A stretch of 63,874 bases of DNA, the filler included, from Basidiobolus ranarum (Eukaryota): assembly GCA_040143965.1 (NCBI GenBank). It is 3 parts of 3 records of this genome, joined end to end, with 100 filler letters (N's around TTAATTAATTAA, not from the genome) between each part and the next. Parts side by side here need not be neighbours in the genome. Positions count along the whole stretch, not along the records: positions 1 to 21,299 come from JASJQH010007085.1; 2 more parts are not named here. One strand, written 5' to 3'. A program made the position numbers and the translations under genes. Shown piece after piece: positions 2,719 to 63,765 of the stretch. Each line of letters begins with the position of its first letter. Position 1 is the first letter of the stretch. The notes below the pieces were generated by a model, which was given only the letters and a program-made list of their open reading frames with translations, had not been told where the DNA came from and ran no database searches.

Positions 2719-5700
2719 AATATAGGATTGTAGTTGAATAGTAAGTGCATATTCAATTAGAAAATCTTTGCACAGTTGCTGTTTCTGCCAGAGATGTGCC
2801 AATGTGAGTTGATACTATAAAAATATATTAGCAATATCCACAAACAACTCCCAATATTACCAATACTGGTCAGGAAGAAATTGTTTCAAGAGTCTATTTG
2901 AATATATACAAATCCAATACTTCCAGTCTTTGCATTTAAATAAATGCCTAGATGAGTGGATATTGATGGGAGTCCTGATGCAATATGATGGTATCTTGAT
3001 GTTTTCATGCATTTTCCCAATTGATTCACACTTTGATCCTATCTCAAATGGCTTATTGATATTGAATTTTCCACTCAATAGCTGAGTAAGCAGTATCTGA
3101 ATGTTGTAAGTTTATCATATTCAATACAACAGCTTCACACAGTTGCTGTATCTGCCTGAGATTGGCCAATAGGAGTTGATGCCATAAAAATATATTAACA
3201 AAATTGACAAACAAATACCAATGTTGCCAATACTTATCAAGCAGAAATCTTTCTTCAGATTCCACTTGAATATATACAAGTCCAATACTTTCAGCCTTTG
3301 CATTCAAATAAATGCCTAGAAGAGTTGATATTGATGGGAGTCCTGGTAAAATATGATGGTATCTTGATGTTTTCAAGCATTTTCCCAATTGATTCAAACT
3401 TTGATCCTATCTCTGATGGCTCATTCATATTGAATTTTCCACTATATAGCTGAGTAAGTAGTATTGGAATGTTGTTGAATAGTAAGTGCATAATGCCTAA
3501 TGGGAAGCTCTTGCTCCAGCTGATCCCCTGTAGCAATATAATCTTAGGCTTATGGCTAATTGCAAGTTTGATGTTAGACAGACTATTTGGTGAATTGATA
3601 TCAGTGAGCATGTTGAAATCTGACCAGGCTCCTGATGGTAAAATCATGGAGATTAGTGCTGTATTTGGATAGTAGCAATGTCTAAGCCTGATAGATTAAA
3701 CTGCATTATTTTTCAAAATCTATAGCAAGATAATATATTATGCCTGCAAAAACCTCCAAGTGTACTGATGGCACAAGTGGCACCAATGCATACATTGATA
3801 TTAGCTTTAATGAAATAATCACCCATCAGAATCCCATAAGATAACCATTCAAATTCCACAATCAATGGCTCCAAGTAGCTACTGATAAGCACTGGTGATT
3901 TTGGTCCAGATATAATGGATAGTATCAAAGTATTATAACTCTTATACCATTCAGAAGGAGGAAGATTCAAGTTAATTCAAGTTATTGGCCAGCAAGCCTT
4001 TTCAACTGTATATTTGCTTAATGAGAAACCAACCAGAGCCATTGCAATTGCTTTATCATACATGTTCTCAAAGAAACCTTGATTTTTCAGATTCTGGTAG
4101 TGATATCCATCAAGTATACTGGTAATACCATGAGCTTTATGGTCAGTACTTTGGTATTGGATCAATGATCTATATTTGGGTGATTTCATTAAAACTTTAA
4201 GACAGGGAATTAACTGTAAGTTAGCCAAATATGAAAAATATCAATCTGATTCAGTGATTACCATTTGTGTGCAAACTGTACATGACTTCAGGCTTTTCAG
4301 ATCACTGGTTCAAGCCAAACAACCATTTGGACATGAAGATAGCTTAATTACTGAAGGATTTTAGGTCATACAATTGACAAGTTTTCCACTTGTACCAGGT
4401 CTGTGGTAAGCAACAGTTGGCAATCAACTGTAATAAAAGTGTAAGAAACCCAATAAGCACCTGGTTGCCAAGATTGGGTTGAACTCTCCACTCCTCAATA
4501 ATCAAAGCTGCTTCCTTTACTGTAAGTGTTATGGGTGGACTATTGCTTGCCAATAACAAAGAATCCATATCAGAACCCTCATCTTCTTCATCAACTTCAG
4601 ATATACTGCCATCAGTATTGGAATAACCAGGGTCAACATCTGGCAGCATGTCCTCAAAGTTGCTTGGACCTACTGGTTCAACCAAAGTTGCATTTCTACC
4701 TATAGCATTCTGGTCATATGACTGTGATAGCTCCATGGAATTTTAACTGTTGGCAATATTACCAAAACTTTGAGGCAAAGCACAGGAGAGGACTCAGTGG
4801 GCAAAAGTAAAGTTGATTTTGTGCACTTATTACTGTTGATATTCACCAGGCTTTGTACAGCTGGTGGCTTTGTACAGTGACTGTGCTTGTGCATGTTTTT
4901 TCTATGAAGCCTTCAGCTCTCATAGCACAAGAATTTGTGACAATAATAGCAGGGCTTCTTTAAATGTTTTTGTTGTGGCATGAGAAGAATATTGTAGAAA
5001 AAAGAACACCTCCTATGTAAGGGCAGTATCTTAGGCATAGTCCATCAATATCATCAGCTGATTCTGAGATAGTTTCACAGATGACTCATTAGGAGATTTA
5101 CAAGATATTTCTGGTAATGGCTGGCAATTTTTGCTTATTACAAGCTAGTTCTTAGCAATTTCCTTAAACCATGCGCACCATCTAACAATTTCAATGCCAC
5201 TAAAAATGCATTCAACATCTGAATCAAAATGGGCTTCCAAGCAAAAGCCTGCTGGAACAAAAGGAAAAAAAACAGCAAGAACAGGGGACTTAATTGCTGG
5301 GCAGTCTAGCAATACACTATCCACTTTGAAAGGCACTAACATGCTGAAAACTAATTCAAGTAATGATAAAGCACTAATCACTTTACCAGATGTGATCCTT
5401 GCCAGTAATAATTGCAAGTGAAAAGATTATAATCTCACAATTATATAGTAAATCAAAAGTTGAGCAAAGTTCAACAGAAACACCTTCAAGACCATCAACT
5501 TCCAAAATATCTACTTTGCCTAATATTGAACAACAATCTGCAGAAAATTAGGATTGAATTATTGCAACAAAGGATTTACAGGTAGAACACCATAATAGTT
5601 TGTATGCAATCATAAGTAAAAACTACAAAGTTATTATACAGGCCTTGACAAGCAATAATGCCGCAATATTGCAATTAATGTAGCATTTGGAAGCAACTAG

Positions 5701-7328: not shown

Positions 7329-9689
7329 CTTACTCTATGTCCATGGTTTGAGCTTTGTTGCTTTTATTGTGCTCAAACAATGCAAAAACCCAAGAGCACA
7401 TTGAAAAGAGCCCCCTTTTGGAAGGTTACTATACTCAGCAGTCTCCATAACCCAATGATTTACATCCTTCACTGATTTTGCTGTTACATTATTAATCAGA
7501 TTAGCATATGGCAATACTGACAATTTCACACAGAGCATCATTTCACCACAAGTGTGCTCCATTAGAACTCCCAGAATGTATAACAAGGGCCTAGAATCTC
7601 TAAGCATTGTGATAGATGTGGCAGGGAATGTATTGAATACTGGCAGAGATTCAGTCTATCTTCTTTAAACCTGTAATAAAGTTTTTCATCTCCAATTACA
7701 AAATCTTTGCACAGTTGCTGTATCAGCCTGGGATCTGCCAATGTGAGTTGATACCATAAGAATATGTTAACAAAGTTGACAAACAACTCCCAATGTTGCC
7801 AATACTTATCAGGAGGAAATCTTTACAAGATTCCACTTGATTATATACAAATCCAATACTTCCAGTCTTTACATTTGAATAAATGCCTAGAGGAGTGGAT
7901 ATTGATGGGAGTCCTGCTAAGATATGATAGTATCTTGATGATTTTAAGCATTTTCCCAATCAATTCAAGCTTTGCTTGTATTTTGAATGGCTCATTCATA
8001 TTGAATTTTCAGCTATATAGCTGAGTAAGTAGTATTGGAATGTTGCTGAAAGGTAAGTGCATAGTGCCTTATGGGAAGCTCTGGCTCTAACTGATCCCCT
8101 TTAGCAATATAATCTTAGGCTTATGGCTAATACCAAGTTTAATGTTGGACTGACTATTTGGTGAATTGATATTATTGATCATGCTGAAATATTCACTCAT
8201 CTGAACCCCATTAGATAAGCATTCAAATTCCACAATCAAAGGCTCCAAGAAGCAATCTATAAGTTCTAGTGACTTAGGTCCAGATATGAAGAATAGTATC
8301 AAAATAGTATGACTCCTATACCAATTCAAAGGAGGCTGATTTAAGTTAATTAAAGTTATTGGCCACAAGTCTTTGCACAGTATATCAGTTTAGCAAGAAA
8401 CCATCAGGAGCCAATGCAAATGCATGATAATATATGTTATCAAAGAAACCTTGACTTTTCAGACTCTGGTAGTGATATCCATTAAGTATGTCAGTAATAC
8501 CATCAGCTTTGTGGTGGGTACTAGGTATTGAATCAATAATCTACATTGGGGTGATTGTATCAAAACTTTAAGATGGGGAATCAATGTTATGTAAGCCAAA
8601 TATGAATGATATTTACCTGATTCAATGATTGCCAATTGTGTGCAAACAGTACATGACATCAGGTTTTTCAGATCACCAGTGAAAGCCAAATAACCATTTG
8701 GACATGAAGGAAGTTTAATTACTGAAGAATTATTAGTCATACAATTGACAAGTATTTTCCATTTGTTCCAGGTCTTTGGCAAAAGTGTAAGAAAATCAAT
8801 AAACATCTGGTTGCTAAGATTGGATTGAAATCTCAGCTCTTGAATAATCAAAGCTGCTTCCTTTAAAACAAGTGTTATGAGTGGACTCATGCTTGCCAAC
8901 AACAAAGAGTCTGTAACTAAACCATTGTCTTCTTCTTCAACTACTGATATACTACCATCAGTCCTGGAATAACTGAGTTCAACATCTAGCAGCATGTTCT
9001 CAAAGCTGTCTGAGCTTAGTGGTTTGACCAAAGTTGCATTTCTATATCCATCATTCTGGTCATATTACTGTGGTAACTCTTTAGTATCTCAACTTTTGGC
9101 AGTGTTACCAAAACTTTGAGGCAAAGTATAGTCAGTGGACTCAGTGGGCAAAATTAAAGTCAATTTTGTGCACTTATTACTGTTGATATTCACTAGGCTC
9201 TGTGCAGCTGGTGGCTTTGTAAAGTGGCCATGTTTGTGATTATTTTTCTATGAAGCCTTCAGCTTTTATAGCACAAGAGTTTGTGACTATAATAGCAGGG
9301 CTTCTTGAAATATTTGTGTTGCAGCATCAGAAGGATATTGTGGAAAAAAGAACACCTACTATGTGAGGGTGGTATTTTAGGTATAGCACATCAATATCAT
9401 CAGTTGCTTCTGAGATGGTGTTACAGATGAGTCATCACAGGATTTACAAGATACTTTTGGTAATGGATGGCAATTTTGGCTTATTATAAGCTGTTTCTCA
9501 TCAAATTCATCATCAATAATGAATTATGTTGGGGATATGCTTTTTAGTGAGAAATAAAGAAGGTGTAATTTCCAGCAAAATAAAGCAGATCAGGCATCCT
9601 TAGAAGCCATAAGATGACCAACAGGCATCAATAATGGAGCCTCCAATACAAAATCAATCATCTTCAAATATGGCAAATATCACGCTATT

Positions 9690-11987
9690 TATTTACAGAT
9701 TGCAGAAAAAGGATTTTTGCAGTTGCTACAATTGAAGCAAGAAAATTAAAAAAGCTCTGACAGGGATTATCTATTTGTGCCTGCCTTGATAGGAACCATT
9801 AAGGAAGACTCAAACATGATATATTGACTCCTGAGCTTCCTAACACATATCAAACCAGAAAAATTTCTTCTCTGTCTTTGAACTAATAAAAACAATGAAA
9901 GTCTAATCAAGAGATGGTTGTGGACTAGATGCAGTGTGTGATTGCACAGCTGTATCTATACTATGCAGCATGCAGTAACCAGTCACAGACTTAAGATCAA
10001 GCTCCAGAGTGTCATTTATCAAAATTGTAAGAAAATGAAATATCTGATCAGTTTTCCTCACTTCAGGACAATGAATATGGTAATGAAGTCCTCTACCATC
10101 AGGAAGAAAGCCAATTGGTTGCAAATGGATCTATGAAGTCAAAAACCAAGCTGATTGAACCATGGAAAGGCACAAAGCAAGAGTTGTTTCAAAAGTTATT
10201 CCCAGACTCCAGAATTTGACTTTAATGATATGTTTGCTCCAGTGGCCAAATTTAGAGCAATTATATACATCCTGGCATTCTCAGCCAACCACAACCTTGG
10301 TTTTCACTAAATGGCTATAAGAACAGCCATGCTTAATGGAAATCTAGAAAAAGAGATTGATATGGAGCAACCAGATAGATTTATTGACCCAAAACATCCT
10401 GATGTAGTTGGTAAGCTGCAAAAATCACTATATAGACTCAAACAAGCGCCTGGGCATGGTACCACAAGATAGATACCTATTTGGAGTTGCTGGAATTCAA
10501 AAATGCACAGCAGATCACAGTATTCTCAGCAAAGTAATCACAAATAGAATCCTTATCTTGGTAGTATATGTGGATGACTTGATCATTGCTACAAATCATC
10601 CAGAAGCACTAAATTAGACAATAAGTAACTTATCAATCCAATTTTAGATGAAAAATATGGGTAAATTAAGTCATTTAATGAAATCCACCTCATGAGAGAC
10701 AAATCTAATCTGAAAAGCATGCTGAAGCAGTCTACATATATCCTAGACTTCTTCCAACACTTCAGCATGGAGAATAGCCAGCCTGTATCAATACCAATGG
10801 ATCCTTATATGAAATTGATGAAAAAAATATCTGGTATGCCCCAAAATTACTCAAATCAAACCCAGAGGTTCCCTTACCAATCCATGGCAGATAGTTTAAT
10901 GTACACAATGGTTGGAACACTTCCAGATATTACTGTGGCATTGGGAGCTGTCAGCCACTATCTCAAAAATCCAAGATCTGAGCACAAAACTGCAGTAAAA
11001 CAGATATTTTGGTAGTTGAGGGGTACCAAAGTTCTAGTTCCGGAACGCTCTGGCACTCCTGATGCACAAAACTTTCAAGGCAACTTTACTGCAAACTGGG
11101 GAAAGAACATAAATGATACAAGAACAACAACTGGGTACACTTTCTCCACAGTAATGGAGCCATAACTTGGAATAGTAAGGAGTAATTAACCATACCAATT
11201 TCAAATATATAAGCAGAGTATATGGCCTCTGCAAATACACATGAAGCCATGTGGTTAAGTAGGTATATTACAGACTCAGGATACATGCAAAAATGTGCTA
11301 TCACTCTATTTGAAGATAAGCTGTAATTCAACAGCTAAAACCCTACATTTCATGCCAGAACAAGACATATAGACATTGGGCATTATTTTGTTAGAAAAGC
11401 AATAGAGCATGATATATTTAAACTTGTCTATTGCCCTACCAAGGAAATGATAGTTGACATCTTAACCTAACCTTTAGCTAAAGCACAATTTGAATCATTA
11501 AGATATAAGTTAGGTTTAAGAGAAATACAGGAATGACTGCTGACATCTTAACCAAACCTTTAGCTAAAGCACTATATGAGCTATTAAGATGTAAGTTAGA
11601 TATAAGAGAAATGCAAGATGATTAGTTGAATGGGAATGTTACAATTAGGTGAATAGCACCTCATTATTTTGTACCTTGTTTATTCATATGCTGATTATTT
11701 AGCACTCAAATCTTCCATTTAAAAACATGTGTTTATTGCTCTAACTTATAGAAATATTAATTAGATCACTTTAACCAATTTGTACCATTTTATCAAATCT
11801 TTTCCAAATCACCTCAAATTTTAACCTATGTTTAACAGGCATGTTTGCTATGATCTAAGCATGTCCAATAGTGATATTTCATGGTACTTGATAAATAGGA
11901 CACATTCAATTCTATATGATTCAAGTGTCTAATTTACAAATCTAAATCTTGTCCTAAATACTTGCAAATCCCCAGAACACTTTATTG
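9690..11987 (+). mobile_element. Degenerate, internally deleted Ty1/copia element (family A): gag/PR remnant, RT-RNase H, 3' LTR
   Basis: LVVYVDDLIIA (RT), MYTMVGTLPDI and RNase H remnants; colinear with 16920-20483. Confidence 0.85.
11637..11987 (+). repeat. Copia family A LTR (3' LTR)
   Basis: Starts TGTTACAATTAGGTGAATAGC after a purine tract (TGAATGGGAA); aligns with the LTRs at 15833 and 20132. Right end approximate. Confidence 0.85.
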
Positions 11988-11989
11988 TG

Positions 11990-12137
11990 AACTTAATTAC
12001 CTTCTCATTTTGGGTCTCAAACAGCCTATAGGCCTTAGATCCATTACAGTAGCCAGGAAATATACATTTACTACGTTGGGCTTTAATTTAGAACATTTTG
12101 AAGCTGGAATAAGGCAACATGCCCTGCAACCAATACA
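11990..12137 (-). mobile_element. Copia family A integrase fragment (downstream half of a split copy)
   Basis: Minus strand encodes SKCIFPGYCNGSKAYRLF, matching RKCIFLGYCNGSRAYRLF at about 18208-18262. Confidence 0.8.
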
Positions 12138-14165
12138 GGTTGCCCACTAAACAAACTCTTAGGACCAGATGGCATCCTAACATGGGTACACCATTTAAAT
12201 ACTTCTTCTCATCCATCGTTTCCCCCGTAACAATTATCTCCGACTCATCACCTAAAAGTTCACATACATTAACATGCTTAGTAAAAGACCTAAATAATCC
12301 CCTGTCAACAGCAGATTTAGAAATAATAATGCCATCCTCCTGATTATATCCCATGTATGACTTTATCATCACAACCAAATTAACCCTGTTGGGTTGCTCC
12401 TCCATCCCCAATAATTTATACACCAACGTATCAACCAATGGCACCTGGGCATATTCCAAAAAATTTATATCCCCAGAAGTTACTATAGAAGGAACATAAA
12501 TTTGCATACTTTGTTTTATTGTTGCAGAAGCAAAAACATTACAAGCTGACTGGTTGTGATTAGCATAAAGAACCATAGATGGAGGAATACCCAACATGAC
12601 TAATGGATGAATCTCCATAGGAGTATACATCTTATGTCTCCTGTGATACCCTATGTCACCCAACATAATCTGAGATTGCTCATCTGGATCCACAAACTCT
12701 ATCTTGCCACTTTCCAAAAGTTTATCCCACAGAAGTTTATCCAACTCTTTCCAATCTATTGCCACCCCCAAAAGCCTAAACAAAGGTCTCACAAATCTTC
12801 CAGAAGATATTTTAACGTAAATAATTCTTGGGATTGGTTTGCAATATGACACAGAAATCATAAGATGAATACATTTGAGTTTGTTTCTAAGAAATCTGAA
12901 ATTGCCACCATAAAATCCTACAATGTATCCATCAAAAAGTACAGAATGTTTTAAGTCACAATTATCATAAGATAAATTATTTTTTAACCAATTCTGTGCC
13001 TCAAAAACTTTTTCTTCAGGAATGTTCAAAAGCAAACATGTCATGGCAAGATGTTTGATAATACCAATGCTTTTTCCTTCGGGGGTTTCACACAAACAAA
13101 CATATCCCAACTGGCTGGGATGAATAGCTTGCATATGAATATTTGAAGTGTTTTTGTCACAAGGTACAATAATTTTGTGGACCATAGAGACTTCATCTAT
13201 AACAGATTTATGTGAAACAAAGTTGACCATTTTGGAATATTTTTTTCCATGAATAATTTGTTGACCTTCTTTAAGCATAATAAAGAGTTCATCATACACA
13301 AAGGTTTGCAGACGATTTTCTATATCAGATACCTTAATGGTGCGATTTAAAATCTGATCCAAAAGAATATTCAAAGCCTTCCCAATTTTGTTTCCATAAT
13401 CATCTTGGTCCATAGGCAGGAAGATATCCATGGCAGTCATAAGAGCTGTATATGATAAGAGGGCAAGTGTGTATACAACATTCTCCTTATTCTGTGATGT
13501 GAAATGCTTGGATTCTAATATTTTTCATTCTTTGGGGGTAATATTATTTTCTGATTCTGTCATAGAGGCTAAGAATACAGTTGAGAAAGTATTCACATGA
13601 GATTTGTTGGCAATCAGAAAAGCAAAAACTTTGTATATTTTACCAAAGTCATAACCTAAGTTATTCATGACTCAATAAACAGACATATGTTTGATTCCAT
13701 TAAGATCTTTGTGAGTTGATGAAACATCTCGATAAAGATCAACAGAATTTTTGATGCAGACCCTTAATGGTAGCAAGGATCCCATGAACCTAGTTTTGCA
13801 ATAAACAACATTTTCATCCTTGGAAATATAGGGGATAAAAATATTTTGTAATTCTTGAATCAGAGGGACTTGTTCTATGCCATTGATGATTTAACAACCC
13901 TTGTTGTTGACAAGAGAGAGTTTACAAATCATTTTGCCATTACTGTGTTTGTAATGTCCTTCATAAGTTTTACATTTAATTAATGCATCAACGTAATCTA
14001 TTTTTGATGGTATTTCATATGATTTATTATTAAGAGGAAAGGGTTATTTGGATTTGGTTACTATAACCCTAATACTTTTAATTGGTATAATTGTTGGAAT
14101 TACTATAAGATTACAGCATATTTCTATATGCAAAAAGGTGGTTGTAATTCAGCAAAATGTTGCAT
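12138..14165 (-). pseudogene. Intronless, compact RNA polymerase second-largest subunit (RPB2/beta-like), N-terminal part only; probable viral or virus-like origin
   Basis: Ordered RPB2 motifs: KG(*)IINGIEQVPLIQE, DQDDYGNK, IHPSQLGYVCLCETPEG..GIIKHLA, SGRFVRPLF, IEFVDPDE, EIHP..MLG..NHNQSA.N, YAQVPLV, VNLVVMIKSYMGYNQEDGIIISKSAVDRGLFRS. A 450-codon open frame plus an upstream part with a few stops; candidate ATG at 14165. Confidence 0.88.
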
Positions 14166-14352
14166 ATTTACAAAATATAACTACGGGATATATAGATGAG
14201 AAAGAATCACAAACGGTAACTTAAAAATATTAGTTATTTTTAATTAAACTGGATAAAGTCTAAAATTATTTAGAATTACACTTATTGGCCAAAATATTTT
14301 TAAAGGTTTTGTTTAGAATAAAATCTGTAGGTTGAAAATTTTTTTTAAAAAA

Positions 14353-15680
14353 AGCTGAGGAGCATAAGCACAGTAGTCTGTTGCTTTTTACATGTCCAGA
14401 ATAGAAACTAGCACAGTCTTAAGAGCAGTTTCTCCATCAATGTCACTGCTTAGTACCCTGATTTTTTGTGCTAATACTTTCTCTACCATTGCTTTCCAGT
14501 GCTTGAATATAGTTAAGGCTCCAGATTATCATTTCAGAAAGAATACCCAATTATATCCTGTTCTGTCATCAATAAAGGTCACAAAGTTCCTTTAGCCATC
14601 TGGTGAGGTGTTTTCCCAGGGAGCACTTAGATCAGAATGAATCAGGGTAAAATTCTGAGTGGATTGGATCTCACCATAGCTCAAAAATAGCAGTCTGTGA
14701 CATTTTCCATATATGCAACCTTCATACAGAATCAATTTGGTAATTGTTCAATTTTAGGCCTGGTACATGCTGATTTTGTAACATTTAGGTCATATTTTGT
14801 TCTTCAATGTGGCCTAAACTTATATGCCACCTTTGAAAGCCTTTCTCACAGGTTTTGGTCACATTTGCATGCTCAGAGTTTCAGTAGTTTTTTCTAACTT
14901 GTATAAGATTTAGGTTTCAATCAAAGTTGGCAATTTAGTCATTTCTGATGTGTGATAGTGCATCCAGCCTTGCTGAATGTGAAATTTAGTCTCTAAGCTG
15001 TCATTTGGCTTACTGCAAGTAGATTCTTGGCTATATCTGATAGAAAGATTAATTCATCCAACTTTGCAAGTGGTTTATCTACATTTAGATCTAAATTGAT
15101 CATGAATGTGCCCTGACCCACTGCATCTATTGCTATGTTATCTCCTAAGTAGACTCTCCAGGTTATGAGGAGTTTTAAGCTGTAAAATCAATATTTTTTT
15201 ATTTGAAGTATACTTGTAAGCTCCTGATTCAATGTACCATGTTTCTGAATCTTCTTTGGTGCTACTAATATGGCAGACACAAATATACAATCCTATCAGT
15301 GCCCATTTGATTTGCTTGGTCTGATCTTAGCATTTTGGCAAAAATCCTTTTTCTGCAATTTTTGTTTAAATGACCTATTTTGTTGCAATACTTGCAGATT
15401 ATTAATTACCTATCAGGGGCACCATTATTGAGGTGTGTTGGACATCTTCAGCTCCAAAAAATGCATGCTCTCTATTATTTTGCTGAGAATTGGATCTCCT
15501 TAATGCCTTCTTCAAATGCTAAGCACCAACATATTCCATTATTAATGGCCCTGATCTTGATTCTAGGGTAGTTTTGAGATTTCCAAACTTGTCTTGCAGG
15601 CTCCCAATTAGTGTCACAACTTTATCTTCTTCATTTGGAGGTGCTCCAATGGATGAAAACTAATATGCCAAAGTTTTGAT
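14353..15680 (-). mobile_element. Copia family A gag-PR-IN fragment (upstream half of the split copy)
   Basis: Reverse-complement homology to about 16620-17935 (zinc-knuckle region, WYIESGA protease, integrase up to the PYTPQ-equivalent motif). Confidence 0.8.
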
Positions 15681-15832
15681 CTAATTAATGTGAATAGTTG
15701 GAGACTCATCAGAATTTGTTTGAATTGAGAGAAATTCTTCCCTTGAATATTGCCTATTAGCCAGTCTGTTAATGTAAAAGTGTCTCTCATGTATTTCCAA
15801 AACATTTTAGATGTTTTTAGCTTATTGTAAAT

Positions 15833-16182
15833 TGTTGAAATTAGGTAAATAGCAACCCATTATTTAGTAATTAGCTTATTCATATACTGACAATTCAGCA
15901 CTCAATTCTCTATTCAAGAATGTGTGTTTATTGTTCTAATTGATAGAAATATCAATTAGAGCACTTTTACCATTTTCCCTATTTTCTCAAAATCTCTCCA
16001 AATCACTTCAAATTTTCACCCATATTTAACAGGTTTTTTGTTATGATCTAAGCACATCCAATAGTCCTATTTAACAGTAAACTATAAGTAGGACATATTC
16101 AATTTTAATAAAACTTAAGTGTCTAATTCACAAATCCAAATCTTGTCCAAAACACTTCCAAGTCCCCCAAACATCTTCATCA
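15833..16182 (+). repeat. Copia family A 5' LTR followed by a putative PBS (GGTTTGGAGCCC, 16183-16194)
   Basis: TG...CA ends; direct repeat of 20132-20483; the PBS resembles the GGTTATGGGCCC type used by copia elements. Confidence 0.9.
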
Positions 16183-19100
16183 GGTTTGGAGCCCAAAGCT
16201 AGCTGTTAAAGAAATGTCTATTAGTACTATGACCAATGTTTTTGCATCCACAGAGAAGTTTGATGGTGAAGACTTTTACTTTTGGAAGTTCAAGACACAA
16301 ATGGTACTAGAGGACAAGGACCTGTGGGGATTTGTTACAGGAGAAGAAATAGCACCAAAGGGACCACCAGAAGCTATCCTTGCCTTTCACAAGAAGCAGA
16401 GAAAAGCACTCTCTACACTTTGTCTACATCTCAGATATTCTCAATTGAGGAACATTCAATCAGCCAAAAATGTCCAAAATGCTTGGAAAACACTTGAGGG
16501 ACTATATGAGACTAAAAGCTGGGCTAACAGGCTATAACTTAAGCAAGAATTATTTTCAATTCAGAAGAATTCTGATGATTCTATGTTTAAGCATAAATAT
16601 TGGATAAGGGCTATGGCAGATCTGCTCTCATCCAAAGGAGCACCTCTAAATGAAGATGACCTAGTCATGTCACTACCTGGGAGCCTGCGGGATGAGCTTG
16701 GCAACCTTATATTTGCCCTAGAATCAAGATCAGAGCCATCAACAATGGAATATATTGGTGCAAGGCTTTAGAATGAAGAATTATGGAGATCTAATTCTCA
16801 GCAAAATAATGCAGAACAGGCACTTTTGAAGCTATAAAACATCCAACAGGCTTCAATAATGGTGCTCCCAAAGGGAAATCAACCATCTGCAAGTATTGCA
16901 AGAAACCAGGCTATGTTATCAAAGATTGCAGAAAAAGGATTTTTGCCAAAAAGCTACAATTAGAACAAGCAAATGAAGGAAGCATGGATAGAGATCATCT
17001 ATTTGTGTCAGTCCTATCAGTAACCCTTAAAGAAGACTCAGAAACATGGTATATTGATTCAGGAGCTTCCCAGCATATGTCAAACAGCAAAGATTTGTTT
17101 TTCAGCTTAAAACCAATCCAAACAAGGAAAGTCTACTTAGGTGATGACTATGCACTAGATGCAGTTGGTAAAGGCACCATTGTACTAAATTTAGACCAAA
17201 ATACAGCTACACCTTCTGCAAAATTGGGTGACATACTCTATGTATAAAATGTAGACAAGAATATACTCTCAGTAAGCCAAGCAACAACTCAAGGACTAAG
17301 TTTTGTGTTCAGTAAAGCTGGATGCACTATCACAGATCAGGATGATACTAAATTAGCCACTGGGATCAAAACTCAAAACTTATACTAGCTAGAAATCAAC
17401 AAATTGCATTCTGAGCATGCAAACTTGGCCAAAACCAGTGAAATTAGCTGTTAAACCTGGCATAAAAGATTAGGCCACATTGGGGAACAAAAACTCACCC
17501 AAATAATCCAAAACCAGCTTGTTTTAGGCTTAGGAATTGGAAATATCTCTACATTGGATCAGTGTCAAGGTTGCATATATATAATATCACAAACAGCCAT
17601 TCTCAAGCTCTGGAAAGGTCATATCCACTCAGAATTTTGCCCTGATTTATTCTGACCTATGCAGGCCCATGAACAATGTCTGACTTGGTGGGAAAAGGTG
17701 TTTTATGACCTGTATTGATGACAAAACAAGAAATACTTGGGTATTCTTTCTCAAATCAAAATCTGGAGTCTTAGCTACATTCAAGCACTACCAAGCAATG
17801 GTAAAGAAAGAATCAGCACAAGAATAAGGGTACTAAGGAATGATCAAGATGGAGAAGACTGCTCTAAAGACTCAGCTAGTTTTTGCTCTAAACATGGAAT
17901 TAAGCAAAAAACTACTGTACCTTATACTCCACAGTAAAATGGAGTTGCAGAACATGCTAATCAGACTATAGTGGAGATGGCAAGATCAATGGTACATGAT
18001 TAAAAGATGGATTACCAATATTGCACTGAATCTATCTCCACTGCAGTCTATCTCAAAAACAGATGCCCACCAAGATTGCTATCAATTTCTACTCCATTTG
18101 AAGCCCTATATGGATCAAACCCAAGTGTGGATCATCTCAGGATCTTTGGTTGCACAACATATGGCCTATTTCCAGCTCAAAAACACTCCAATTTGGAACC
18201 TAAAAGCAGAAAATGCATATTTCTTGGCTACTGTAATGGATCTAGGGCTTACAGACTGTTTGATATCAAAAATCAGAAGTTAATCAAGAGCAGAGAAGCA
18301 ATTTTTGATGAACAAGCAAATTTTTCACTTAAAGTCACAGTTCTTGAACCAGTAAACACAATCAGTACTATTCAGGAAGTGTCTGGCAGAATTCCAACAG
18401 TATCTGAGCCATATTCAACCAAAACTCCTGTCCCAATTACATCAATTGATGATTCAGGACCCAGAAGATCATAGTGAAGGAAAAATAGGCCTGGAAACTG
18501 GTGGAACACTTCAAATGATGAAGTATATGCTAATGTAGTATCCTGCAACAAGCCACAGACTCTAGATAATGCTCTGGAGTGTCCAGAATCAAAAATATGG
18601 AAAAAAGCAATGTCAGATGAGTTTTCTTCACTTCAGGACAATAAAACATGGGTATCAAGTACTCTTTCATCAGGCAGAAAGCAAATAGGTTCTAAGTGGG
18701 TCTACAAAGTTAAAAACCAATCTGATGGAGACATAGAAAGGTACAAAACAAGATTAGTTGCAAAAGGCTATTCCCAGACTCCAGGAGTTGATTTAATGAA
18801 GCTTTTGCTCAAGTCACTTAGTTTAGCTCTATTAGTCCAATCCTGACACTCTCGGTTGTCCATAACCTTGACATACATTATATGGATGTAAATACAGCCC
18901 TTCTGAATGGAAATCTAGAAGAAGAGATCTATATGGAGAAACCAGATGGATTTGTTGACCCAAAACATCCTGTTATGGTCAGTAAACTGCAAAAGTTGCT
19001 CTATGGACTCAAGTAAGTACCCATGGCTTGGTACAACCAGATAGATACCAAGTTGGAATTACTGGAATTCCAAAAATGCACAGCAATCACAGTATTTACA

Positions 19101-20131
19101 TCAAAACAACCGGAAATAGAATACTTATCTTAGCACTACACTTGGATGACTTGATCATAGCTACAAATGATCTAGAATCTCTTAATCAGACAAAAAGCAG
19201 CTTATCAAACCAATTTCAGATGACTAATATGGGTAAATTAAGTCATTTTCTAGGAGTCCAAATCAAGAGAGATAAACCCAATCAGAAAATCATGCTGAAT
19301 CAGGCTAGATACATCCTGGATATCCAAAAACACTTTAACATGGAGCAATGCAATCCTGTGTCAACACAATGAATCTTAATGTGAAATTAATAAATTTCAT
19401 CCAAATTTGGCCCAATATAACTTAAATCAAAGCCAGGAGTCCCCTTAACAATCCATGAGGGGTAGTTTAATGCATACAATTGTTGGAACATGTCCAGACA
19501 TTGCTGTGGCAGTGGGAACTGTCAGCCAATATTTCAAAAATCCAGGATCTGAGCACAAAGCTGCAGTATAACAAATATTCAGGTGCTTGAGAGGAACTGT
19601 AGATCTGGTTCTGGAATACTCTGCCACTCCTGATGCACAAAACTTTGAAGGCTACAGTGATGCAGACTGGTGAAGAATCCTCAATGATCAAAGATCAACA
19701 ACTAGAATTACTTTTCTCAATGGTAATGGAGTCATAACTTGAAATAGTAAGAAGCAACCAACCATAGCACTTTCCACTAGAGAAGCAGAGTATATGGCTG
19801 CCTCCACTATTTCACCAGAAGCTATGTGGTTAAGAAAGTTATTTACAGACTTAGGATACATGCAAAACTGTGCTATTACTGTATTTGAAGACAATCAAAG
19901 TTGTATTTCATTAGCTAAAAACCCAATATTTCATGCTAGAACAAAACATATAGCTATTAGGAATCATTTTGTTGGAGAAGCAATAGAGAATAATATATCT
20001 GAACTGGTCTATTGCCCTACTGAGGAAATGATAGTTGACTTCTTAACCTAACCTTTAGCTAAAGCACAATTTGAATTATTGAGATATAAGTTAGGCTTAA
20101 GAGAAATACAAAATAATTAGTTGGGTGGGAA

Positions 20132-20483
20132 TGTCAAAATTAGGTAAATAGCAACTCATTATTTAGTAGTTAGTTTATTCATATTCTGATTATTTAGCAC
20201 TCAATTCTGTTATTCAACAACGTGTGTTTGTTGCTCTAATTGATAGGAATATCAATTATATCACTTTTACCAATTTTCACTATTTTCTCAAAACTTCTCC
20301 AAATCACCTCAAACTTTCACCCATGCTTAACAGGCATGTTTGTTATGATCTAAGCATGTCCAATAGTCCTATTTCATAGTAAACTATAAATAGGACATAT
20401 TGAATTCAATAAAACTTAAGTGTCCAATTCACAAATCCAAATCTTGTCCAAAACACTTCCAAATCCCCTAAACACTTTTATCA
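20132..20483 (+). repeat. Copia family A 3' LTR preceded by a polypurine tract (GGGTGGGAA)
   Basis: TGTCAAAATTAGG...TTTTATCA; direct repeat of the 5' LTR. Confidence 0.9.
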
Positions 20484-20627
20484 GAATAATGCTTGCATCA
20501 TCTTCGGAATTTGCCTTAATGTCTAAAAGCACTTTTCCTGGGTAAATCACATAAGTAAAACTACTGATTCTGAAATGGTAAATAACATCATGCTAGATAG
20601 TGTGCTATTATGCCAATTTGTGCTGCA
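20484..20627 (+). mobile_element. Diverged fragment of the right arm of the PHIS/Pangu-like element
   Basis: Aligns by eye to about 37775-37918 (CACATAAGTAAAA, AAATGGTAA, ATGCCAATTTGTGCTG shared). Confidence 0.6.
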
Positions 20628-21299: not shown

Positions 21300-21399
21300 N
21301 NNNNNNNNNNNNNNNNNNNNNNNNNNNNNNNNNNNNNNNNNNNTTAATTAATTAANNNNNNNNNNNNNNNNNNNNNNNNNNNNNNNNNNNNNNNNNNNN
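21300..21399. other. Assembly gap/spacer (N44-TTAATTAATTAA-N44)
   Basis: Symmetric N runs around a 12-mer that gives stop codons in all frames. Confidence 0.97.
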
Positions 21400-36845: not shown

Positions 36846-37780
36846 ATGCGCGCCAGATCAATCAGTATTGTGCCAGCTCAATACAAGATTAATATCATGC
36901 TCTCCATCCACTCTAACTGGTCATTCCTCATTAATCCAAAAGCAACTACTGGCTTTCCTATCACCACCCTAGAGGCTATATTTGAGAAATACTGTGGCTC
37001 ATGTACTCCAATACCTACCAGAAAGCAGCTAGTCAATTTGTTTTGTTACTATAAAAACTATTGTCTAGACAGATTTCAGTGCACTATTAATGGTTGCAGA
37101 AGTGGGAGAAGCTTCCATACCAGGCTTCAAGTAAGTGAGAATTATCTAGCTTCAGTGATGAATGATGTTCAAGATGCCTGGGACAAAAGATTTAGAGACT
37201 CTATTTTCTTCCATTTCCTGGAGTATTTCCCAATAGAGTTCATATCAGAAATATTCTTGACACATTTCCAGTCAGAATTAACAGGCCCAAAAGCAACCAA
37301 AGGCTATTCTATTCTGGCAAGTACAAAGCCCACTGTGTAAAGTTCCAGGCTTTGACAGATCTGGAAGGAAACCTTATTTGGTTTAGTTGGCCACATGCAG
37401 GGAGACACCATGACAAAAAGCTTTGGGTTGAGAGGCATGCACCATTTGTAAGATATGAGAAGACTATGGCCGATTTGGCATATGTTGGGGAAGAATGCAG
37501 ATGGCTAGGATGTGTCACTGCAAACAAGAGGCCCAGAGGAGGGATACTCACAGAAAGGCAAAAGCTTTATAATGACATTTTTTCCCATTTTTGAGCAGGA
37601 GTAGAACATAGCTTTGGTTTCCTAAAGAGATATAGCATTGTAGCAGGAAAGTATAGAGGAAAATCATTTTGTGGGCCTCAATCAAAGTTAGGCAAAGTAG
37701 TCAAAATCTTGATTAATTCTCAATACATCCATACTCAAAGATATCCATTGAGAGCTCTAAACTTAAGACACTATGAATAA
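36846..37780 (+). pseudogene. DDE_Tnp_4-like (IS5/ISL2/Harbinger-type) transposase with one frameshift and one premature stop
   Basis: Joined frames give ILDTFPVRINRP..Q..FYSGKYKAHCVKFQALTD.EG, PHAGRHHD, MADLAYVG, YNDIFSHF(*)AGVEHSFGFLK. Frameshift near 37200; TGA at 37592 falls at the conserved Arg position. Confidence 0.88.
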
Positions 37781-42588: not shown

Positions 42589-42688
42589 NNNNNNNNNNNN
42601 NNNNNNNNNNNNNNNNNNNNNNNNNNNNNNNNTTAATTAATTAANNNNNNNNNNNNNNNNNNNNNNNNNNNNNNNNNNNNNNNNNNNN
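42589..42688. other. Assembly gap/spacer (N44-TTAATTAATTAA-N44)
   Basis: Same construct as at 21300. Confidence 0.97.
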
Positions 42689-44340
42689 ATGGTTTCCAAA
42701 TTTTCACCAAGATATAATTCGTATCCATGATGTTCCAATATAAGACTTAACATTATTAAACCTGAACCCTGAACCTCGTCTACAAAAACAAACGCCGGGA
42801 TGTACTGATCAGCTAGTGCCAAATGGAGATTCCAACCTAGCCTTTCAACGATGAAATCTTATGACACTGAATCGTTTTAGTTACGCTGACGCTGTGCTGG
42901 CAATCACTGGATCCAATGTAATCCTTCTTTTCAGGTATTTGCGCTAATATATTTATACAGGGCCACTGCAAGATCAACGAAGATCACCTCAAAGTTGCGC
43001 TTGCTGATTCGATCTTTCTGGAGGGATTATTAATGAATGATTGCTGTGAAACCTCTCTCGACTCGGAATATTCTGCGGAGTATTGGAAATCTTTGTAGGT
43101 TGGGTTTCATTCCTACTTGGAGAGGGCCAACAAGCTCTGACGTCATGGCTCGATCTCTGTGTGTAGTAAACGTATTTATTTGGGGAAGGTTAGTGTTGAC
43201 ATGGCCTCACTAGTTGGCGCAGTACCGTAAGTTTCTTGGCTCAAGTTCAACGGAGCTTGCGGCACAATCATATTGATGGGTTCGAGTACTCAGGCCCACA
43301 CTTGGCCCTTTTACGCAGCTAGAATATCCAAGAATGGCAACATGCTTTGCTTTGATCGGTGTTTATTAATCGCTGATTGTGGGTCAAGTAGTCAACCAAT
43401 ACGTCCCTGCCCAATCACCATGAATGTTGTTAATGGATTAGCCATTTATGTCAGGTACTTCCCGTCACTAATTTAGGGCCAATTTAGAAATAGGCATTAA
43501 ATAGAATCCTAGAGCTTGGGCGATGCAATCACGTAAACAGTAGTATAGTAAAGGATACGAATCTGGAAAATCGCATGAATTTCTAGAAACGAACGGTGTA
43601 GGCGAAGACAGTCAATCAGCGAATCAGTAGCTAAAAGGTTATAGTTACTGTGCCTGTATAGCTATTGTTCTGCTACCTCTCATCCTTACGCTTGCATATC
43701 GATTGTAATTGACATGAATGGCGTGGCTGACCATGCCAATCAAGTAAGATGGGCTTGTGTATTGGTTACTATTGGAGTTATATTTAATTTCGTGTCACTT
43801 TAATAGGTTGCCGTTGTGGGTAAGTGTACTGGATCCGGCTCTGACCACAGTGGGCTTGTTTAGAACTACAACCAGATCTTAATTTAGAATCACATTCTAA
43901 CTTTAAGCTGGTTTGCCGTTCACTCGCCTCACCTCCCCTCCCCTTCTCAAGCTCGAAGTTCTCTCTTTCTCCAGTGGGAATTTCGAATCAACCTTCTTTA
44001 TCTTTGTGTATCCTGCTCTCCTACTTTTATTTTTGCGCCTTTTAATTTCCTTGATACCTTTAACTAAACCTTTCACATTTTCCCAAAGATACAGTTGACG
44101 TCACTTAATTTTGAACCTCACCTGTTGCTCAGTCGACGTTTTTAAACCTTCGTTTTTGATATTTCTATTAACCGAGCTTTGTGTGCCTCACGTCTCTCTT
44201 TCTCTAAAACACTAACCCCTAATTGTTCACTTTCTTATTTACTACTAAAAATACTTTTCGAGTCTTTCATTTCACAAAAACCAGCATATCAACTTCAATT
44301 CACAATATCGTTCTCTCCTCAGTTGCTTCTCTTCAACCCT

Positions 44341-46342
<2,002 letters not shown>

Positions 46343-62198: not shown

Positions 62199-63765
<1,567 letters not shown>

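Follow-up and report, generated by a model that had tools for sequence, protein, structure and literature searches.

The stretch of DNA analysed here (the window, 63,874 nucleotides) comes from assembly GCA_040143965.1 of the fungus Basidiobolus ranarum. It holds, on the minus strand at 12170..14165, a decayed gene resembling RPB2, the second-largest, β-like subunit of multisubunit RNA polymerase (RNAP), as judged by translation, by Pfam matches to Rpb2_3 and Rpb2_6, and by tblastn. This relic is very probably a fragment of the RPB2/β-like gene of a virus-encoded multisubunit RNAP, derived from a DNA element of the 'fundsalphavirus' lineage, which resembles the nucleocytoplasmic large DNA viruses (NCLDVs). 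A single minus-strand frame extends from ~14199 down to 12088. Five in-frame stops interrupt it within the relic (at 14151, 14046, 13893, 13674 and 13527), and its last 450 codons are open (open reading frame (ORF) 12088..13440). The ATG at 14165-14163 lies one base off the main frame of the relic; at least one early frameshift, in the first few dozen codons, is therefore likely. An intron is not needed to read the relic: a partial, stop-free protein of the same species (KAK9667531.1, 570 amino acids, referred to below as P0427) is 90% identical to the window (513/570) and aligns with it free of gaps over residues 1-570 (window 13932-12223), carrying Y, W and L at three of the window's stop positions.

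In the reconstructed protein the fork domain (Rpb2_3, E 3.9e-12, residues 329-388) and the hybrid-binding domain (Rpb2_6, E 3.8e-19, residues 545-647, matching only profile positions 7-111 of 373) are both present and in the correct order, with Rpb2_5 below the Pfam cut-off. A search of PDB sequences matches 31 distinct chains at E ≤ 0.001, the best being RNA polymerase II (Pol II) RPB2 (1.3e-33), then archaeal Rpo2 (3.9e-33), RPC2 (8.9e-27), RPA2 (2.1e-15), the RPB2 of African swine fever virus (3.7e-13) and vaccinia rpo132 (2.2e-5). The relic covers approximately the first 677 of the ~963 codons of a compact RPB2 (residues 52-677 of the intact relative P0138 correspond by tblastn to window 14007-12163) and is truncated just past the 'GYNQED...DRGLFRS' region. 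Intact relatives have a complete catalytic C-terminal part, with all of domain 6, domain 7 and a zinc ribbon, whereas here everything beyond the first portion of domain 6 is missing; what the window holds is thus a pseudogene of this family in truncated form, without function at present. The original prediction, made from the sequence of the locus, that RPB2 motifs run in order and without introns to just past 'GYNQED..DRGLFRS' is thus borne out by translation, Pfam, tblastn and the gap-free alignment to P0427. The end that it placed at 12138 has to be moved, since RPB2 homology stops at ~12163-12175 and the bases from 12133 downward are those of a Copia retrotransposon. Between the last RPB2-like codons and the restart of Copia lies a short junction zone (12134..12169, minus strand; tblastn matches end at 12163-12175 and the Copia blastn match starts at 12133), which is attributed to neither of the two. 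On the other side, upstream of the ATG and still on the minus strand, are 189 bp of AT-rich, non-Copia DNA (14166..14354, GC 20.6%) that reach to the point where Copia homology stops (14355) and that are presumed to be viral intergenic or promoter DNA.

The Copia setting of the relic can be read from three elements, of which the full-length element A (15838..20484, plus strand), with long terminal repeats (LTRs) at ~15838-16183 and 20137-20484 (88% identical over 349 bp) and with gag, protease and integrase ORFs, served as the reference for mapping the other two by blastn. Element B (9511..11983, plus strand) is internally deleted, and its 3' LTR ends at 11983, where it abuts element C. Element C, on the minus strand, is present in two parts: a 5' part comprising gag, protease and the N-terminal portion of integrase (14355..15827, corresponding to A 16457-17934, 74% over 1484 bp), and a piece of C-terminal integrase (11992..12133, corresponding to A 18146-18288, 76% over 143 bp). 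Between them lies an insert of 2,221 bp (12134-14354), in the same orientation as Copia and in place of 211 bp of integrase (A-equivalent 17935-18145). The breakpoints fall at 14354/14355 (A 17934) and at 12133/12134; the flanks are colinear, and the RPB2 frame continues into the frame of the integrase C-terminus. Element C itself is incomplete at both ends, cut short at one by an LTR of element A and at the other by that of element B, which ends at 11983.

The relic has decayed in the manner of the repeats around it. When its 57 differences from P0427 are polarised with three further family members (P0140, P0138 and P0139), 34 prove to be derived in the window and 2 in P0427, with 21 unpolarised. 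Of the window-derived changes, 24 of 34 are C>T or G>A (12 of each), and at least 14 of these 24, read from the codon list, affect CpG-type codons (for example, CGN to CAN or TGN, ACG to ATG, GCG to GTG). The relic has an observed/expected (o/e) CpG ratio of 0.18, compared with 0.00-0.05 for the transposable elements (TEs) on its flanks and 0.75-0.82 for the piece of the window that carries host genes; the relic, whose TpG/CpA o/e is 1.35, is thus less CpG-exhausted than the surrounding Copia DNA. CpG decay of the relic had been proposed from its odd residues, and these counts confirm it. The contrast extends over the window at large: the TE-rich part (1-33000) has a CpG o/e of 0.00-0.05 and a TpG/CpA ratio of ~1.3-1.4, whereas the gene-bearing part (43000-63874) has a CpG o/e of 0.75-0.82. 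This is a strong signature of repeat-confined decay, either methylation-driven or resembling repeat-induced point mutation.

Compact RPB2 proteins (820-1005 amino acids, as against 1089-1224 for the canonical rows aligned with them) form a monophyletic family, a grouping made in this analysis, and the relic is one of its members. In a word-indexed search, the window ORF was followed by three proteins of 985-1005 amino acids (E 3e-75 to 7e-74), canonical RPB2s beginning only at E 1.4e-36; 87 of 7795 candidates matched at E ≤ 1e-5. An exhaustive search of 1.84 billion representatives gave 3716 matches at E ≤ 0.001, 100 of them at E ≤ 1e-30. The best full-length matches were P0138 (963 amino acids, 42% identity, E 1.2e-143, colinear from 66-678 of the window protein to 53-676) and P0139 (966 amino acids), and dozens of compact relatives (811-1003 amino acids, E 1e-143 to ~1e-38) stood among the best 150 matches listed. 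In the intact members scanned, Pfam detects only domains 3, 6 and 7, with a sub-threshold domain 1 in two of six, and finds no domain 2, 4 or 5.

Where the missing residues have gone is evident from an alignment of eight compact rows, including the window, with nine canonical archaeal, eukaryotic and IMG/VR rows. Only ~3 residues separate 'IPxM' from 'GxFIIxG' in the compact rows, as compared with ~25-30 in all nine canonical ones, so that the close spacing originally remarked on in the relic turns out to be family-wide. From the N-terminus to GxFIIxG there are 66-95 residues in the seven intact compact rows and 143-249 in canonical rows; from GxFIIxG to the fork, 255-283 and 301-381; from GYNQED to SRHxQKG, 62-126 and 116-159. 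The other segments are similar in length in the two groups. Segment lengths of 269, 177 and 70 in the window are closely matched by 269, 185 and 75 in P0138. The short linkers are a family trait and not a product of decay. Because intact relatives measure 820-1005 amino acids against 1089-1224 for canonical rows, these sequences support the view that small polymerase size is a genuine property of the donor element, and the minimised polymerase that had been proposed for it holds up. An AlphaFold model of P0138, built from a 19-row family alignment, has a mean predicted local distance difference test score (pLDDT) of 71.3 and a predicted template-modelling score (pTM) of 0.65, most of its N-terminal half exceeding a pLDDT of 85 and its catalytic C-terminal third scoring low. 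By Foldseek, the model resembles chains of archaeal Rpo2 and of Pol II RPB2 (E 1.7e-48, TMq 0.54-0.59).

Two phylogenetic analyses place the relic within the compact family. In the first (LG+G4, 63 rows by 1020 columns), the window pairs with P0140 (Shimodaira-Hasegawa-like approximate likelihood ratio test (SH-aLRT) support 100), then with P0138 (96) and P0139 (100), in a compact clade of 32 rows, window included, with a support of 99. The nearest rows outside this clade are from IMG/VR (L090, L121 and L130; support 96); archaeal rows, a plant RPB2, a microsporidian RPC2, a mucoralean RPA2 and the main IMG/VR clade are all placed elsewhere. In the second, which uses the site-heterogeneous model LG+C20+F+G4 (28 rows by 909 columns), a compact clade of 11 rows has a support of 100, and its union with IMG/VR rows L145, L090, L121 and L130 has a support of only 92, unstarred. 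L121, L145 and the record L131, the equivalent of L130, are named as genomes of giant viruses assembled from metagenomes (GVMAGs). Both trees are quick searches without bootstraps; their cellular eukaryotic rows number four, none from the host, and several branches are long.

Relatives of the relic occur beyond this locus. In B. ranarum itself, besides P0427, KAK9759139.1 (P0140, 336 amino acids), likewise free of stops, is 80% identical and extends ~100 residues beyond the truncation point of the window copy, and KAK9763416.1 (P0142) is 57% identical. Podila verticillata NRRL 6337 has a compact RPB2 of 994 amino acids (KFH61778.1) on a contig of 70,265 bp, and proteins near-identical to it lie on contigs of 69,864 and 95,100 bp; that of Linnemannia elongata (KAG0067766.1) has 883 amino acids. 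The named family members are thus all from early-diverging fungi (B. ranarum, P. verticillata and L. elongata), and the others come from metagenome and IMG/VR contigs. An ENA cluster of compact RPB2s comprises 14 proteins, and the contigs that carry 13 of these measure 39-92 kb. In the clusters around P0003 and P0145, near-identical compact RPB2s are found repeatedly on contigs that resemble one another in length (two of the Podila type measure ~70 kb), which would fit complete replicons of that size. A scan of metagenomes with the family alignment was dominated by canonical RPB2, the only compact locus among 80 being L001. Single-protein scans of IMG/VR gave no match with P0003 or P0146 and, with P0143, only a canonical RPB2 of 1646 amino acids (L081). 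Against the ESM Atlas, P0138 matched only generic RPB2 clusters, one of them all-eukaryote with Streptophyta as its commonest phylum and with the same three Pfam domains; that cluster is a lead only. An ORF of 705 amino acids without a known identity had no match there. The supposition that the donor came from an unsampled lineage does not survive the dozens of relatives among the best 150 matches listed, the named fungal copies, and the gene set published in 2020 that is discussed below.

The nature of the donor is best seen from three contigs that carry an intact compact RPB2, whose gene contents were read from Pfam scans covering 20 of 29 ORFs on contig A and 26 of 33 on contig B, all unscanned ORFs being shorter than 190 amino acids; the threshold for A and B was 0.001 in the first scans and 0.01 in later ones. 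The metagenomic contig L001 (15.3 kb, GC 36%) encodes a D5-like primase-helicase, a compact RPB2 of 862 amino acids, an SNF2 helicase, a protein kinase with Sel1 repeats and a GDSL lipase. Contig A, from IMG/VR (35,106 bp, all of it seen), encodes D5, RPB2 (820 amino acids), PolB (798 amino acids), SNF2, a B-lectin protein, the N-terminal part of RPB1, uracil-DNA glycosylase (UDG), a DUF5757 protein, RPB5, the C-terminal part of RPB1 and an XPG-like nuclease. Contig B, also from IMG/VR (51,666 bp, with 42,486 bp covered), encodes a lysozyme, a capping-enzyme methyltransferase, PolB, D5, the C-terminal part of RPB1, TFIIS, UDG, XPG, RPB2 (891 amino acids), a DUF5757 protein, the N-terminal part of RPB1 and a superfamily II (SFII) helicase. 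The ORFs are dense and uninterrupted. The core common to A and B was confirmed by blastp, which also revealed a shared protein (277 amino acids on one contig, 288 on the other) that bears a DxD motif and a zinc finger and resembles a primase. Taken together, A, B and L001 carry the NCLDV core genes for replication and transcription (PolB, D5, RNAP subunits, TFIIS, capping enzyme and SFII helicase), which the window lacks. Together with the family trees, these gene sets bear out the proposed derivation from a virus-like DNA element.

Two further kinds of gene on these contigs deserve mention in their own right. The lysozyme of contig B (L165:380-1369, minus strand), a contig that resembles those of eukaryotic viruses, is a fusion of a phage-type lysozyme with a peptidoglycan-binding domain (Pfam E 2.8e-22 and 3.7e-13); bacteria may be its target, or the gene may have been gained by horizontal transfer. 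A mannose-binding lectin domain of the bulb type is present in proteins encoded on contig A (L161:10105-13875, plus strand) and on contig B (L083:14868-16295, plus strand); the domain was recognised by Pfam (B_lectin, E 3.3e-7) and by matches to PDB lectins down to E 7.6e-6.

These gene sets match that of the endogenous 'fundsalphaviruses' described by Gong, Zhang and Han (2020, Virus Evol 6:veaa008; PMC7017919). According to the main text of that paper, their genes include D5, SNF2 helicase, an SAM methyltransferase, RPB2, RPB5 and the N- and C-terminal parts of RPB1, with RPB2 among six shared genes, and flank a PolB that groups near Pithovirus; they occur in 14 species from six fungal phyla, among them Basidiobolus meristosporus, B. 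heterosporus, Mortierella verticillata and M. elongata (PMC7017919). The likeness extends to the host genera, Basidiobolus and the two Mortierella species (now Podila and Linnemannia), to the gene set, as found on the related compact-RPB2 contigs (the window itself holding only RPB2 and SNF2 fragments), and to the presence of stops and frameshifts and of retrotransposons nearby. In contrast to the multi-gene blocks described there, the relic is a lone 2.2-kb fragment in a Copia integrase, and B. ranarum is not among the 14 species of the main text; the main-text section on the elements makes no mention of a compact polymerase size (PMC7017919). From what that text provides we infer, strongly, that the fundsalphavirus RPB2 is of the compact family. 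The relic is a new member of an already reported class of endogenous elements. Searches for later literature found the name 'fundsalphavirus' only in Gong et al. 2020 itself, and the papers listed by one of them do not mention Linnemannia or Podila.

Comparison with the RPB2 of Nucleocytoviricota at large, as represented by IMG/VR GVMAGs, brings out both kinship and distance. The two have in common a stand-alone β-type subunit with Rpb2_3, Rpb2_6, Rpb2_7 and a C-terminal zinc ribbon, and the non-compact rows nearest to the compact family in both trees are from IMG/VR. They differ in overall length (820-1005 amino acids in the compact family versus 1132-1223 in three IMG/VR rows measured), in the distance from the N-terminus to GxFIIxG (66-95 versus 143-209 residues) and from GxFIIxG to the fork (255-283 versus 337-381), in the compact family's common 'SRHAQKG' where others have 'SRHGQKG', and in its lack of domains 2, 4 and 5 by Pfam. 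The RPB2 chains of African swine fever virus reach only the E value given above against the window protein. Other giant-virus-derived DNA in fungal genomes belongs to different lineages, as far as the accounts drawn on here go: an asfarvirus-like endogenous region of 1.5 Mb in Rhizophagus irregularis (Zhao et al. 2023, PMC10640383), the Rhizophagus elements having been placed with Asfarviridae as 'fundsbetavirus' (Gong et al., PMC7017919), and the Mycodnaviridae of zoosporic fungi, which possess genes for capsids and are placed close to Imitervirales and Algavirales (Myers et al. 2026, PMC13533422). In the last of these studies, a wider protein search, over 2,543 MycoCosm genomes, yielded one non-zoosporic match (PMC13533422).

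Reduced polymerases are also known from yeast linear plasmids of the pGKL2 type, to which the original prediction had likened the relic. The likeness is partial. Compact-RPB2 contigs pair PolB with a D5-type primase-helicase, unlike the pGKL elements, which replicate by protein priming and measure ~13 kb. The pGKL2-type polymerase, as described in the part of Sykora et al. (2018, PMC6211774) used here, is likewise shortened mainly through reduced spacing of conserved regions, and it likewise forms a self-contained transcription module with a capping enzyme and a superfamily II helicase. However, its K2ORF6p is a β-β' fusion (residues 1-693 β, 754-974 β'), with K2ORF7p as the other RNAP protein and with a small β' C-terminal subunit besides the fusion (PMC6211774), whereas compact RPB2 ends in Rpb2_7 and a zinc ribbon of its own, and RPB1 is separate and in two parts. 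A pGKL2-type RNAP was accordingly rejected on architecture: the family has no β-β' fusion and encodes RPB1 separately, and the analogy fails on that ground.

The arrangement of the locus suggests the following history. In the living element, compact RPB2 would be accompanied by a split RPB1, RPB5, a TFIIS-like factor, a capping enzyme and an SNF2 helicase, and such a set, to judge from gene content, would transcribe the element independently of host Pol II. Some 2.2 kb of element DNA (the 189 bp upstream and about the first two thirds of the gene) became lodged in the Copia integrase, replacing 211 bp of it, most likely through capture of a fragment during double-strand-break repair inside a Copia copy. 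After insertion it decayed along with the surrounding TEs, mainly by C-to-T change at CpG.

How else the same facts might arise can be considered under the headings of route and of source. The orientation of the insert with the Copia ORFs, its location inside the element between colinear flanks, and the passage of the RPB2 frame into that of the integrase C-terminus would also follow if template switching during Copia reverse transcription had captured element RNA, in which event a Copia-RPB2 chimera may have transposed; retrotransposon sequences near such elements are recorded in the main text of Gong et al. as well (PMC7017919). This main alternative route is a genuine contender that we nonetheless consider unlikely: a shared orientation has a prior of 50% and a shared frame of one in three, the insert includes 189 bp ahead of the ATG (at three related loci RPB2 starts within ~100 bp of the preceding ORF or overlaps it), and the truncation is not common to other Basidiobolus copies, P0140 continuing for ~100 residues past it. 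As to source, the lack of introns and a best PDB match to Pol II RPB2 might bring to mind a processed pseudogene or ancient paralogue of host RPB2, RPC2 or RPA2. The likelihood of this is minute: archaeal Rpo2 scores equally well, compact relatives reach 1e-143, both trees place the relic with the compact rows and apart from those of eukaryotic RPB2, RPC2 and RPA2, and it shares the family's deletions and brings upstream DNA of its own. A processed pseudogene of cellular RPB2, RPC2 or RPA2 is contradicted by both trees, with their four eukaryotic rows, none of them from the host, and by the family-wide deletions; the relic is not a host polymerase copy, as had been foreseen, and neither trees nor alignment show it grouping or colinear with these cellular subunits. 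That the locus is a chimera of the assembly, or that fungal TE sequence has been joined to DNA of a contaminant, is very improbable. Although the assembly is fragmentary at such loci, with paralogues on contigs of 1.7-1.8 kb, and the window is itself a concatenation of contigs, both flanks of the insert are the same Copia element in register, the relic has undergone the same CpG-to-TpG decay as the TEs (CpG and TpG/CpA ratios given above), and it has five stops where the 90% paralogue has none. Residence of the relic in a eukaryotic genome rests on this Copia embedding and CpG decay.

Several points tell against attributing the relic to a virus of the fundsalphavirus lineage. The equation with fundsalphaviruses draws on the main text of Gong et al. 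2020. The rows of the trees include no NCLDV named to family, the nearest non-compact rows being IMG/VR giant-virus contigs, and long-branch effects are possible. The relic's contig (1-21299) holds only TEs, and linkage to host genes is not established. A tblastn search of the window with every ORF of L001, L162, contig A and contig B places no other gene of the element beside the relic. Finally, Pfam finds no capsid protein, A32-type ATPase or VLTF3 among the scanned ORFs of contigs A and B, which may be partial. That last result is also what would be expected of a donor that was a capsid-less, plasmid-like NCLDV derivative of some tens of kilobases, with genes for replication and transcription only. 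The Walker-A pattern occurs in just one D5, one SFII helicase and one L001 ORF of 157 amino acids; six unknown ORFs of 277-837 amino acids, one carrying the lectin domain, have no capsid match among PDB sequences when compared by sequence and not by fold; by blastp, contigs A and B have no ORF of capsid size in common that lacks a Pfam identity; and the ORFs that they share and that do match Pfam are all concerned with replication or transcription save for one weak esterase-like match, four shared pairs having no Pfam match. The portion of Myers et al. 2026 drawn on here, moreover, reports that no capsid gene of NCLDVs was found in 40 genomes of non-zoosporic fungi (PMC13533422). Such a donor is nevertheless doubtful: contig A may be incomplete and ~9 kb of contig B was not seen, relatives lie on contigs of 54-95 kb beyond those read, Pfam misses divergent capsids, and IMG/VR files both contig A and contig B as viral. 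It is a speculative thought, then, that the lineage consists of capsid-less or radically re-capsidated, self-transcribing elements of ~35-95 kb in non-zoosporic early-diverging fungi such as Basidiobolus and Mortierellaceae, shedding fragments into the TEs of their hosts. A plasmid-like NCLDV derivative of this sort might conceivably parallel the yeast cytoplasmic killer plasmids in function, at a size an order of magnitude larger.

The make-up of the window constrains what can be said of the relic's neighbourhood. Two identical artificial spacers, each consisting of 44 N, TTAATTAATTAA and 44 N, occupy 21300..21399 and 42589..42688; the window therefore consists of three contigs joined artificially, and neighbourhoods across the joins are not real. 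Piece 1, which holds the relic, has two repeats in common with piece 2 and none with piece 3, where the intron-rich genes lie. Thus the intron-dense host genes with which the relic had been contrasted do exist in the window, but on a different contig, beyond an artificial spacer. The tblastn search of element ORFs found, apart from the RPB2 relic, only an SNF2 fragment and a weak kinase match (45290-45793, 23%) beside host genes; no PolB is present in the window by the same search. The SNF2 fragment (42691..42834, minus strand) comprises 48 residues of a D6/D11-like helicase that runs off the edge of the third contig, and it is 64% identical to its counterpart on contig A (E 1.7e-9), 55% to that on L162 (5e-10) and 53% to that on L001 (4e-5). 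With a local CpG o/e of 0.82, it is probably, as far as these matches indicate, a second relic of the same kind of element.

Other features of the window are of the host or of its repeats. To the left of the Copia cluster are decayed copies of a large ORF family (307-1583, 3291-4742 and 8459-9064), in which the motif 'CCLPQTWYKW...' recurs and which is probably another DNA-transposon family. A fragment of a DDE_Tnp_4 transposase of the Harbinger/PIF type lies at 37196..37594 on the plus strand (Pfam E 1.4e-14). A TGT exon in piece 3 (62199-62897) is 66-70% identical to proteins of Conidiobolus and Kickxellomycotina, its nearest matches thus being in Zoopagomycota, with no Basidiobolus match.

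The relic itself is an ordinary decayed viral fragment; what gives it value is that it points to a neglected lineage. The locus also illustrates cleanly how viral DNA came to lie within a retrotransposon and was erased by CpG decay. Giant-virus-like elements of the non-flagellated early fungi were reported once, in 2020, and have barely been followed up in the literature found. The traits of the lineage are a polymerase ~200 residues shorter than usual, contigs of tens of kilobases and, in two related contigs, a lack of detectable genes for a capsid. Should Basidiobolus or Mortierellaceae harbour complete members, possibly as episomes, such fungi would have their first DNA-virus-like replicons, and these would offer a natural minimal form of the archaeal/eukaryotic type of RNA polymerase.

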